This document shows, one piece after another, positions 17,514 through 21,500 of a stretch of 22,124 bases of DNA; position 1 is the stretch's first letter, and the number at the start of each line of letters is the position of its first letter. Location: positions 1 to 22,124 of the IMG/VR virus record IMGVR_UViG_2698536657_000008. The stretch is one strand, 5' to 3'. The stretch is from a virus. Its lineage: Duplodnaviria > Heunggongvirae > Uroviricota > Caudoviricetes. The translations under genes were made by a program, and so were the position numbers. The notes under the pieces are model-generated. The model was not told where the DNA came from. It did not search any database and saw nothing but the letters and a program-made list of their open reading frames with translations.

Positions 17514-18091
17514 ACACGGCAGCGGAGGCCATCCGTGCCCTGTCGCTGCAGGTGCCGGGATTCCGCAGTCAGATGAACGAAGGCTGGTACCAGATACGCA
17601 TTGCCGGTGAGGATACCGCGCCGGAGGCGGTGTATGCCCGTCTTCATGAGCCGCTGAGCGGGAGGGCCGTGATTCATATTGTACCGAGGCTGGCAGGGGC
17701 CGGGGGAAATGGTGTGTTTCAGGTGGTGCTGGGGGTTGCAGCGATTGTCGGGTCATTTTTCACTGGTGGTGCAACGATGGCGTTGTGGGGCGCAGCCCTG
17801 AGTGCCGGAGGGCTGACTGCCACCACGGTGCTGTTCTCGCTGGGTGCCAGCATGATACTGGGTGGTGTGGCCCAGATGCTGGCCCCGAAGGCAAAGACGC
17901 CGGATTACCGGGCGACGGATAACGGCAAACAGAACACGTATTTTTCGTCACTGGACAACATGATTGCCCAGGGCAACCCGATGCCGGTGCCTTACGGTGA
18001 AATGCTGGTTGGTTCACGACGGATATCCCAGGATATCAGCACCCGTGATGAGGGCGGTGACGGTAAGGTGGTGGTTATCGGGCGGGGATAA
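17411..18091 (+). CDS. I: Tail tip assembly protein (gpI-like)
   Basis: 226 aa. Strong similarity to lambda gpI (RICL.GDLQRFGRRI, FSLGASM.LGGVAQMLAPKA, TDNGKQNTYFSSLDNM.AQGN). Overlaps the K 3' end by ~100 bp as in lambda. Confidence 0.9.
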   Translation: MATTNAFCLASPPLVRICLHGDLQRFGRRISLYVNTAAEAIRALSLQVPGFRSQMNEGWYQIRIAGEDTAPEAVYARLHEPLSGRAVIHIVPRLAGAGGNGVFQVVLGVAAIVGSFFTGGATMALWGAALSAGGLTATTVLFSLGASMILGGVAQMLAPKAKTPDYRATDNGKQNTYFSSLDNMIAQGNPMPVPYGEMLVGSRRISQDISTRDEGGDGKVVVIGRG

Positions 18092-18102
18092 AAATAAAAA
18101 AA

Positions 18103-18128
18103 TCCCGCAGTGTTCGGAGGCTGCGGGA
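18103..18128 (-). terminator. Minus-strand rho-independent terminator-like hairpin at the left edge of the I-J insert
   Basis: TCCCGCAG (18103-18110) pairs with CTGCGGGA (18121-18128) around a 10-nt loop. It is preceded on the + strand by AAAATAAAAAAA (18091-18102), which is a T-run following the hairpin when read on the minus strand. Confidence 0.45.
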
Positions 18129-18151
18129 GATAACAATGAAGACTAACGTTC

Positions 18152-18249
18152 AAGGAGTTTTGTTTTTATTGACCCGAAAAAACTGTAATGCCCCGGAATG
18201 ATATCTGCCACGGGGATGTACAGAAAATGTGAAGAATTTCAGAAATTTT
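18152..18249 (+). repeat. I-J intergenic direct repeat, copy 1
   Basis: Contains AAGGAGTT (18152-18159), TTTTATTGACC (18164-18174) and the 25-mer AAATGTGAAGAATTTCAGAAATTTT (18225-18249), all shared in the same order with copy 2. The 25-mer contains the 13-bp palindrome AATTTC-A-GAAATT. Confidence 0.65.
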
Positions 18250-18323
18250 CTGTTGCGGGGCTGAAGTAAAAAACGCTCCCGCAATACACCTGGATATTAA
18301 CGGGAGGAACGAATAGTCACCTT

Positions 18324-18428
18324 AAGGAGTTGCGATTAATTGCTTTTATTGACCGCAGGTAATCTACCCATCCGGCAAGGTTTCCTCCACGGGAATTTGC
18401 CGGAAATGTGAAGAATTTCAGAAATTTT
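18324..18428 (+). repeat. I-J intergenic direct repeat, copy 2
   Basis: AAGGAGTT (18324-18331), TTTTATTGACC (18344-18354) and an identical 25-mer (18404-18428), 179 bp downstream of copy 1. Confidence 0.65.
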
Positions 18429-18441
18429 ATTCCGTCATGAC

Positions 18442-18472
18442 ACAGGCACCTCCGGGGTGCCTGTCGTTTTTT
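18442..18472 (+). terminator. Plus-strand rho-independent terminator at the right edge of the I-J insert
   Basis: ACAGGCACC (18442-18450), loop TCCGG, GGTGCCTGT (18456-18464), then CGTTTTTT (18465-18472): a 9-bp GC-rich stem plus T-tract. Confidence 0.55.
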
Positions 18473-18515
18473 GGGCATAAACAGATTCAGACATCAGACA
18501 GGAGAGGGGGACAGA

Positions 18516-21500
18516 GTGGGTAAAGGGGGCGGCAAGGGGCACACACCACGTGAGGCGAAGGACAATCTCAAATCCACGCAGATGATGAGCGTGATTGATG
18601 CCATTGGTGAGGGGCCGGTGGAAGGTCCGGTTAACGGCCTGCAGAGTATTCTGGTGAACAAAACCCCGCTGACGGACACGGACGGTAATCCCGTGATACA
18701 CGGTGTGACCGCCGTCTGGCGTGCCGGGGAGCAGGAGCAGACGCCGCCGGAAGGTTTTGAGTCCTCCGGGGCTGAAACCGCACTGGGCGTGGAGGTGACG
18801 AAGGCAAAGCCGGTGACGCGCACCATCACGTCAGCGAACATTGACCGTCTGCGGGTCACCTTCGGGGTGCAGTCACTGGTGGAGACCACCTCAAAGGGTG
18901 ACCGTAATCCCTCTTCTGTCCGCCTGCTGATTCAGCTTGAGCGTAACGGGCACTGGGTGACGGAGAAGGATATCACCATTAACGGCAAGACCACCTCGCA
19001 GTACCTGACGTCTGTGATTCTGAATAATCTCCCTGAGCGCCCCTTTAACATCCGGATGGTCAGGGAGACGGCGGACAGCACCACGGACCAGCTGCAGAAC
19101 AGAACGCTGTGGTCGTCATACACCGAAATCATCGATGTGAAACAGTGCTACCCGAACACGGCGATTGTGGGGCTGCAGGTGGATGCGGAGCAGTTTGGTG
19201 GCCAGCAGCTGACGGTGAACTACCATATCCGTGGTCGCATCATTCAGGTGCCGTCAAACTATGACCCGGAAAAACGCACCTACAGCGGTATCTGGGACGG
19301 GAGTCTGAAACCGGCATACAGCAATAACCCGGCCTGGTGCCTGTGGGACATGCTGACCCACCCGCGCTACGGGATGGGAAAACGCCTGGGGGCCGCGGAC
19401 GTGGACAAGTGGGCACTGTATGCCATCGGGCAGTACTGTGACCAGACGGTCCCGGATGGTTTCGGGGGAACAGAGCCGCGGATGACTTTCAATGCGTACC
19501 TGTCACAGCAGCGTAAGGTCTGGGATGTCCTGGGGGATTTCTGCTCGGCGATGCGCTGTATGCCGGTATGGAACGGTCAGACGCTGACGTTCGTTCAGGA
19601 CCGTCCGTCGGATGTGGTGTGGCCGTACACGAACAGCGATGTGGTGGTGGATGATAACGGCGTGGGGTTCCGCTACAGCTTCAGTGCCCTGAAGGACCGG
19701 CACACGGCGGTGGAGGTGAATTACACCGACCCGCAGAACGGCTGGCAGACTTCCACTGAACTGGTGGAAGACCCGGACGCCATCCTGCGCTACGGGCGCA
19801 ATCTGCTGAAGATGGATGCGTTTGGCTGTACCAGCCGCGGTCAGGCCCACCGTGCCGGACTGTGGGTGATAAAGACAGAACTGCTGGAAACGCAGACGGT
19901 GGATTTCACGCTCGGGTCACAGGGGCTGCGGCACACGCCCGGTGACATCATTGAAATCTGTGATAACGACTATGCCGGGACCCTGACCGGCGGACGTATC
20001 CTGTCCATCGATGCCGCCAGCCGTACCCTGACGCTGGACCGTGAGGTGACACTGCCGGAAACAGGGACATCGACGGTGAACCTGATTAACGGCAGCGGTA
20101 AGCCGGTGCGCGTGGACATCACTGCACACCCCGCCCCTGACCGGATACAGGTCAGCGTCCTGCCTGATGGCGTGGAGACATACGGTGTGTGGGGACTCTC
20201 CCTGCCGTCACTGCGTCGTCGCCTGTTCCGCTGTGTTTCCATCCGGGAAAACACGGACGGCACCTTTGCCATCACGGCAGTGCAGCACGTACCGGAAAAA
20301 GAAGCCATCGTGGATAACGGGGCCCGCTTTGAGCCGATGTCCGGCTCACTGAACAGCGTCATCCCGCCGGCAGTGCAGCACCTCACGGTGGAGGTGAGTG
20401 CCTCAGACGGCCAGTATCTGGCGCTGGCGAAATGGGACACGCCGCGGGTGGTGAAGGGCGTGCGCTTCAGTCTGCGCCTGACCAGTGGCAGTGGTGAAAA
20501 CAGCCGCCTGGTGACCAGCGCCATCACGGCGGACACGGAGCACCGTTTCAGTGGCCTGCCGCCCGGGGAATACACCCTGACGGTCAGGGCGATAAACAGC
20601 TACGGCCAGCAGGGCGAACCTGCCACCACCACGTTCCGGATTAACGCCCCGGCAGCACCGGCCAGCATTGAACTGACGCCGGGGTATTTTCAGATAACGG
20701 CGGTACCGCGCCTTGCGGTGTATGACCCGACGGTACAGTTTGAGTTCTGGTTTTCGGAAAAACGCATCACGGACATGGCACAGGTGGAAACGTCCGCCCG
20801 TTATCTGGGGACAGGCAGCCAGTGGAGCGTCTCCGGCCCGCACATTAAGCCGGGGACGGATTTCTGGTTTTATGTGCGCAGCGTCAACCTGGTGGGGAAA
20901 TCTGCTTTTGTGGAAGCCAGCGGACGGGCCAGCAATGATGCGGAAGGTTATCTGGAACTGTTCCGGGAAAAGATAGGAAAACTGCATCTGGCACAGGGGA
21001 TGTGGGAGCTGATTGATAACAGCCAGCTTGATGATGAGATGGCGGAGATGAAGACCACCATCACGGAAACCCGCAATGAAATCACGCAGACGGTCAACAA
21101 AACCCTGGAAGACCAGAGCGCCACCATACAGCAGATACAGCGGGTGCAGACAGACACAAATGATGACCTGGCTGCGCTGTACATGCTGAAGGTGCAGAAA
21201 ACAAAGGATGGCATTCCGTATGTTGCCGGTATTGGTGCGGGGATTGAGGATGCAGATGGCCAGCCCCTGAGCAATATTCTGCTGCAGGCGGACCGTATCG
21301 CGATGATTAACCCGGAGAACGGCAACACCACGCCGCTGTTTGTGGCGCAGGGGAATCAGTTGTTCATGAACGACGTGTTCCTGAAGCGACTGTTTGCGGT
21401 GAGCATCACCTCGTCCGGCAATCCCCCGACGTTCTCCCTGACGCCGGACGGCAGGCTGACGGCCCGTAATGCGGACATCAGCGGACATATCAGTGCGAAC

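Follow-up and report, generated by a model that had tools for sequence, protein, structure and literature searches.

A Probable Pair of PasB-Family Small RNA Genes, Antisense to the Late Tail Operon, at the I–J Junction of a Lambda-like Phage

Small RNAs described at the I–J junction and comparable systems

Hfq-CRAC peaks named EcOnc22, EcOnc23, and EcOnc24 were assigned to the + strand in prophages Sp15, Sp14, and Sp11, respectively, of EHEC O157:H7 Sakai (Tree et al., 2014, Table S2; PMC4104026). EcOnc22 was seen by northern blot as an RNA of ∼85 nt that was destabilized in an hfq mutant, and the targets of all three were listed as unknown (PMC4104026). In the Sakai genome, all three peaks lie within I–J spacers, where genes I and J are on the − strand. 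The EcOnc northern probe (GGGAGAGAACGATGAAGATTAAC...) has the sequence of the tail-sense strand just inside the I-proximal hairpin, which indicates that the EcOnc RNA is transcribed in antisense to I and J, with its end at that hairpin. Direct placement of the Table S2 coordinates on NC_002695.2, which puts the peak on the J-proximal hairpin, was rejected because they refer to an older sequence version; position and strand were settled by the probe. The current NC_002695.2 differs from Table S2 by +142 bp at stx2B, an offset that can misplace peaks in short spacers.

A second member of the family, PasB, was described in enteropathogenic Escherichia coli E2348/69 as an RNA of 83 nt (NC_011601, 1466343→1466261, minus strand; Pearl Mizrahi et al., 2021, PMC8550237). 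PasB is Hfq dependent, reaches a higher level in LB cultures grown overnight than in exponential DMEM cultures, and in the activating condition formed RIL-seq chimeras with bfpB, bfpI, ftsZ, galE, ler, perB, and rplX (PMC8550237). Its seed was located immediately before the terminator (Zhu, Shabalina and Storz, 2026, bioRxiv 10.64898/2026.05.13.724894). Neither of these papers takes up tandem PasB units, a promoter-proximal box, or the antisense position (PMC8550237; bioRxiv 10.64898/2026.05.13.724894), and no mention of arrays of one to four units, of a B-type paralogue, or of a box at fixed distance was found in the PasB/EcOnc literature searched. The published PasB coordinates fall within the I–J spacer of prophage PP6 on the strand opposite to the tail genes, and the RNA ends in a U7 tract beside the stop codon of I.

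OmrA/OmrB and PrrF1/PrrF2 are tandemly duplicated sRNA genes with shared control. Like the locus described here, they are adjacent paralogous genes, each with its own promoter and terminator, with a conserved box and a partly diverged body; they are, however, chromosomal core genes, whereas the present array lies in a tail operon and varies from one to four units across prophages. AgvB and AsxR (Tree et al., 2014; RF02702, RF02703) resemble it in being Hfq-binding sRNAs of prophages that occupy a conserved moron position as related, nonidentical copies, but they lie downstream of PR′ and have other sequences. Identity of the spacer RNAs with AgvB or AsxR was rejected on that location and because no Rfam model matches the window. 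HnrS (EcOnc10–12) was likewise set aside as a different sRNA, located downstream of Rz and seemingly absent from the window. Positions 2131–2310, downstream of Rz (compare locus L168), are 94% identical to the flank of HnrS in Sakai Sp10 (EcOnc11); the homology stops before the HnrS terminator, and HnrS therefore seems to be missing from this prophage. Probes for PasA, PasC, and PasD had no match in the window.

The I–J spacer and its two units

The window, the whole stretch of 22,124 nucleotides that was analyzed, is a lambda-like late region on the + strand, running from lysozyme, Rz, Nu1, and gpA to the tape-measure protein, L, I, and J. A sequence-only reading had singled out a gap of ∼425 bp between I and J, put that of lambda at only a few tens of base pairs, and found no ORF of 60 aa or more in the gap. 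The measured spacer is 424 bp (18092–18515), compared with 60 bp in lambda, and no ORF of at least 60 aa lies wholly inside it. Lambda-type I–J junctions, 60–71 bp long in the junction comparison, contain no PasB-like units. The spacer is, in our judgment, very probably a moron-like insert of two tandem PasB-family sRNA genes, transcribed leftward and antisense to the late tail operon. Its features and borders are as follows.

Ends at 18091, + strand: gene I (Pfam Lambda_tail_I)
18096–18181, − strand: predicted sRNA copy A, homologue of PasB and EcOnc22–24 (covariance model and identity); tail-sense sequence GATAACAATGAAGACTAACG
18096–18128, − strand: predicted intrinsic terminator of copy A, hairpin 18103–18128 and U7 tract 18096–18102 (fold)
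18136–18159, − strand: conserved single-stranded body of copy A, candidate seed region, AACUCCUU ... GUUAGUCUUCAU (A-type alignment)
18198–18203, − strand: predicted −10 hexamer of copy A, TATCAT, in the position relative to the box where other units have TATAAT, AATAAT, or CATAAT
18225–18249, no strand assigned: box A, perfect 25-mer with core TGTGA-N6-TCAGA (18228–18243), directly upstream of the copy A promoter
18268–18353, − strand: predicted sRNA copy B, diverged B-type paralogue (A-type model and unit comparison)
18268–18306, − strand: predicted intrinsic terminator of copy B, hairpin 18276–18306, then CG and U6 tract 18268–18273 (fold)
18310–18329, − strand: conserved B-type segment CUCCUUAAGGUGACUAUUCG, whose core AAGGUGACUAUUCG is invariant in all B variants seen; tail-sense sequence of the core CGAATAGTCACCTTAAGGAG
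18371–18404, no strand assigned: putative promoter region of copy B, with inverted repeat TCCGGCAA/TTGCCGGA
18404–18428, no strand assigned: box B, second 25-mer, core 18407–18422
18442–18474, + strand: hairpin (18442–18464; fold z = −3.8) and T-run before the ribosome-binding site of J
18516–18518, + strand: GTG start codon of gene J (Ig_J and GpJ domains)

The spacer contains two repeat units of ∼175 bp, legible on the minus strand. The composite repeat reported before is present in two copies: AAGGAGTT at 18152 and 18324, TTG(T/C)TTTTATTGACC at 18160 and 18340, and a 57-nt element (18193–18249 and 18372–18428, 179 bp apart) that is 81% identical overall and identical in its last 25 nt. A motif search for this 25-mer returned the pattern twice in the window, against 0.00 expected from 100 shuffles. 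A further repeat, missing from the earlier list, consists of an A-run and a TCCCGCA motif (AAAAAAATCCCGCA at 18096, AAAACGCTCCCGCA at 18270) and thus provides a minus-strand terminator in each unit; the units are longer than had been described. Unit B is 71% identical to unit A over 161 nt, and box and flanks are shared, which makes the homology of the two units clear.

Read on the minus strand, the order within a unit is the box (TCTGA-N6-TCACA), a variable −35 stretch, a −10 at fixed offset, GCGTTAC(A)GTTTTTT, the body, and the terminator. Two types of body occur. The A-type body, AACUCCUU...GUUAAUCUUCAU, has a terminator stem, CCCGCAG/CUGCGGG, that is invariant in 19 homologues and a loop that is variable; the B-type body has the invariant core AAGGUGACUAUUCG and the stem CUCCCG(U)/(A)CGGGAG. 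No double compensatory changes were found in the terminator stems of either alignment. Folding energies of the whole RNAs are no better than those of shuffled sequences (z = −0.5 to −0.9), which is usual for Hfq sRNAs. Among 70 unique units, 58 have a −10 hexamer matching TATAAT in at least five of six positions at one fixed offset from the box (TATAAT in 22 units, AATAAT in 19, TATCAT in 10, and CATAAT in 7). The −10 predicts a start ∼14 nt upstream of the mapped 5′ ends of the homologous RNAs of 83–85 nt, an offset that reflects either 5′ processing or imprecise mapping. In the proposed arrangement, each minus-strand unit would comprise the box, a promoter with a fixed −10 and a poor −35, a largely unstructured body of ∼85–100 nt, and a Rho-independent terminator, and late transcription modified by Q would pass through the entire cassette along the opposite strand.

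Of the contents suggested earlier for the spacer, "one or two small RNAs" was the correct one, with both on the minus strand and antisense to I and J, which explains why no plus-strand promoter could be placed by eye. The description of the spacer as a self-contained, moron-like insert also stands: it is absent at the same junction in lambda and related phages, and its own promoter and terminator can be recognized for unit A and for the homologous units. For unit B this layout holds only in part, as the terminator is present but the allele in the window has no recognizable −10. The insert is not peculiar to this phage, as a ∼240-bp one-unit form is standard in Stx1/Stx2-type phages. The transcript of that one-unit form has been seen by northern blot in two pathogens. 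The locus is unannotated in RefSeq and has no Rfam model: a scan of the whole window with Rfam 15 gave no family at or above the gathering threshold, and a scan of 17950–18650 gave chance-level matches only. A promoter scan of 17800–18800 on both strands found nothing.

Copy A was assessed with an A-type covariance model made from 19 homologous units of other loci, with the window and its nearest relatives left out. For positions 18181–18096 (minus strand) it gave a score of 87.6 bits (E = 9e-16). With 82% identity to PasB (over 83 nt), copy A is closer to PasB than EcOnc22 is (75%); its identity to the Sp15 copy (EcOnc22) is 78%. It lies at the I–J position, antisense to the tail genes, and is homologous in sequence and structure; a 3′ stem-loop followed by a U tract, serving as terminator and probable Hfq site, is found in both copies of the window. 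Judged by homology, copy A is the orthologue of PasB in EPEC and of EcOnc22/23/24 in EHEC. Binding to Hfq, stabilization by it, and RIL-seq chimeras with mRNAs of the host and of virulence genes are established for these homologues and would extend to copy A by the same relationship. PasB and copy A agree in locus, strand, box, −10 offset, and a terminator abutting the stop codon of I; the promoter of copy A (TTCTGT-16-TATCAT, with a weak −35) is weaker than that of PasB (TTCACA-16-TATAAT, 11 of 12 matches in the promoter scan of E2348/69), and the window adds a second, diverged unit behind the first. EcOnc22/23/24 share spacer and strand with copy A, but their spacers are single-unit and 240 bp long. 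The mature 5′ end of copy A is expected at ∼18177 by comparison with the 83-nt PasB, and the primary start at ∼18191 from the predicted −10. Its terminator lies 5 nt from the stop codon of I (fold z = −4.6); the hairpin at the left edge had been called a terminator on the minus strand only, and indeed the U-run adjoins 18103–18128 on that strand alone.

The body of copy A overlaps the first of two tiny ORFs proposed as peptide genes, 18136–18201 (MKTNVQGVLFLLTRKNCNAPE) and 18198–18269. The first has a GGGAG motif 7 nt before its ATG at 18136, and its first four codons (MKIN/MKTN) recur in many homologues, but the ATG is replaced by ACG in 12 of 61 unique A-type units, the reading frame is disrupted by frameshifts after ∼10 codons and varies in length (the shortest has 10 aa, the longest more than 41), and it is wholly absent from B-type units. 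The conserved nucleotides coincide with the sRNA body, and the second ORF spans the promoter and box and is not conserved. That the spacer encodes peptides is thus scarcely credible, and the earlier suggestion was dropped.

Copy B was matched by the A-type model over its full length as the second-best hit in the window, although weakly (14 bits, E = 0.42). All 12 pairs of its terminator form in six of six B-type variants, and three of these pairs alternate solely between U-A and U-G, or A-U and G-U, a pattern that fits the minus-strand RNA only. Among the B-type variants, 5′ parts and loops vary while the core AAGGUGACUAUUCG is kept, including at a locus where the B-type unit stands alone. No description or annotation of a B-type unit was found in the literature and genome annotations searched. 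Since its conserved core differs, copy B presumably has a different set of targets from copy A.

The expression of copy B is uncertain because the canonical −10 is missing: positions 18377–18382 read AACCTT, within the inverted repeat of the promoter region, and the allele in the window is the only unit type with no −10-like hexamer at the fixed position. Copy B may accordingly be weakly expressed, differently controlled, or silent. A realistic, though less favored, reading is that copy A is the sole working gene and that unit B is a decaying duplicate from unequal crossing-over with a dead promoter. The empty promoter scan agrees with it, as does the very low diversity of the allele, which is found in 26–27 of 5,426 complete E. 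coli genomes at ≥99% identity. Against decay, the box, body core, and terminator of unit B are intact, and TAGATT, 16 nt downstream (18361–18366, minus strand), could serve as a replacement −10. Moreover, other B-type units have TATAAT or CATAAT promoters and one locus is B-only, which argues that the B type as such is under selection. The reading of the spacer as two sRNA genes is retained, with this reservation about the promoter of copy B.

The box and its candidate regulator

The 25-mer had been noticed for the palindrome AATTTC-A-GAAATT and proposed as a binding site for a dimeric protein. The palindrome is perfect in the window but matches in just 4–5 of 6 positions in the commonest homologues, and the 13-bp palindrome was accordingly discarded as the conserved element; what does not vary is TGTGAA...TCAGA. 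In 18 unique units outside those chosen by the scan pattern, the half-sites of the box were invariant and four of the six N6 positions varied. A site for a dimeric protein is plausible. A dimeric host regulator is the most likely ligand of the box and would drive or modulate the promoters of the units.

The CRP consensus is TGTGA-N6-TCACA, and the box agrees with it in nine of ten core positions, with AAA and T-rich flanks. The second half-site is TCAGA or TCATA, never TCACA. CRP is the best sequence match and a tentative candidate for the regulator; a dimeric regulator in general is more likely than CRP specifically. Fixed half-sites with a free spacer and the poor −35 elements speak in favor of CRP, and so does, circumstantially, the rise of PasB in LB over its level in DMEM, which contains glucose; Spot 42 (Spf), which is repressed by CRP, behaves in the opposite way. 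Between the center of the box and the first base of the −10 lie 32.5 bp, which puts the center at about −44.5 with the standard predicted start, off the positions near −41.5 or −61.5 expected for CRP.

The boxes could alternatively be operators that control the tail genes, for example through an internal promoter of J, rather than parts of sRNA promoters. The box is the most conserved DNA element of the locus and is dyad-like, as an operator would be. It occurs, however, once per sRNA unit (1–4 per spacer) at a fixed distance from the minus-strand −10, and the promoter scan showed no plus-strand promoter-like site after the box. In lambda-type phages, J is translated from the Q-dependent late transcript. 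An operator for the tail genes is therefore very improbable, and we regard the boxes as belonging to the sRNA promoters.

The I–J junction as an insertion site and its arrays

The right edge of the spacer had been read as a strong plus-strand terminator bounding the module. The hairpin is present and strong, but it does not bound the module. An equivalent hairpin with a T-run stands directly before the ribosome-binding site of J in lambda and in further phages that lack the insert, and the one in the window is for this reason not counted as part of the insert. Lambda-type spacers of 60–71 bp (locus L129; also L128 and L147) are made up almost wholly of such a plus-strand hairpin and T-run, for example AAACCGCCTGCGGGCGGTTTTGTCATTT, and a terminator-like element inside the late operon recurs at the I–J junction across lambdoid phages. 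Elsewhere in the window, the 335-bp gap (1065–1399) between lysozyme (531–1064) and Rz (1400–1867) contains a plus-strand terminator-like hairpin at ∼1157–1195 (AAAAACCCCG...CGGGGTTTTGTGTTT) and a 37-codon ORF (1286–1399) that has a hydrophobic C-terminal half and overlaps the start of Rz.

The same junction and strand are occupied in two other loci by a protein-coding moron, sodC (Cu,Zn superoxide dismutase), which indicates that the junction is a general insertion site. The two sodC-like ORFs (L150, 2196–2726, and L160, 327–1361, both minus strand) come from a Citrobacter prophage and a metagenome-assembled contig and were recognized by eye from the motifs GFHIHENGSC...GGGGARIACGII. In L160, a box-less PasB-like unit follows downstream of the sodC-like ORF on the same strand.

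A scan of IMG/VR for the box gave 119 loci, all of them I–J junctions, and 124 with the window and other fetched loci. Among the 124 examined, the spacer has one unit in 104, two in 8, three in 2, and four in 9, the longest spacers reaching 929 bp. Spacers of ∼910 bp were considered as artefacts of detecting the end of I, an explanation that was rejected as they are genuine four-unit arrays; arrays of three and four units were confirmed in complete genomes, none of them annotated. The 3′ end of gene I recurs in the linkers between units, a trace that unequal crossing-over would be expected to leave. Four-unit arrays in L056, L061, L166, and L167 (907–929 bp) have the constant body order A, A, B, A. 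At L165 (904–1146), a B-type unit is the sole unit, with the box TGTGA-N6-TCATA and AATAAC at the −10 position. In complete E. coli genomes, the one-unit spacer of ∼240 bp is found in 779 of 5,426, at a median of three places in each genome that has it. Thirty-eight genomes carry the full two-unit form (best match SCU-171, 99.3%), and B-type sequences, all unannotated, are found in 110 of the 5,426. Carriers of multi-unit arrays include STEC strains of serotypes O91:H21, O104:H21, and O113:H21, and strain 00-3076 is an example with four units.

This multiplicity bears on whether the RNAs act mainly in cis, by cleavage of the late mRNA or transcription interference that would tune the dosage of J or hit co-resident or superinfecting lambdoid phages; in a converse variant, the late mRNA could be a sponge for the sRNA on induction. 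The RNAs are perfectly complementary to the I–J intercistronic part of the late mRNA, their antisense position inside the operon is conserved in all loci examined, and many E. coli genomes have several near-identical spacers. PasB nevertheless forms Hfq-dependent chimeras with unlinked mRNAs, a usual mark of sRNAs that act in trans, has no overlap with coding sequences or ribosome-binding sites, and is expressed in lysogens and from cryptic prophages, where the late operon is silent. A mainly cis-acting role is thus unlikely, and the interpretation as PasB-family sRNA genes is kept.

The feature is real and largely already explained, copy A being a known sRNA and its B-type sister the modest new part. 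In EPEC and EHEC prophages, PasB/EcOnc22 ranks with the abundant sRNAs bound by Hfq, and it contacts the virulence mRNAs ler, perB, and bfp. To this the present analysis adds the antisense location in the tail operon, diverged arrays of one to four copies, a second body type, and an invariant CRP-like box, whose fixed distance to the −10 holds in every copy. These features explain why BLAST-based censuses found little diversity of PasB, and with a model of the PasB family hundreds of E. coli genomes could be annotated better. It is conceivable, though we think it rather doubtful, that the I–J junction of Stx-type prophages is an expandable array of one to four Hfq-binding sRNA units with a shared box and different seeds, in which the B type is functional and has its own regulon. 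If so, prophages would re-assort and dose host-directed sRNAs by unequal crossing-over, and the late tail mRNA might be a further target of the RNAs, in cis or across prophages.
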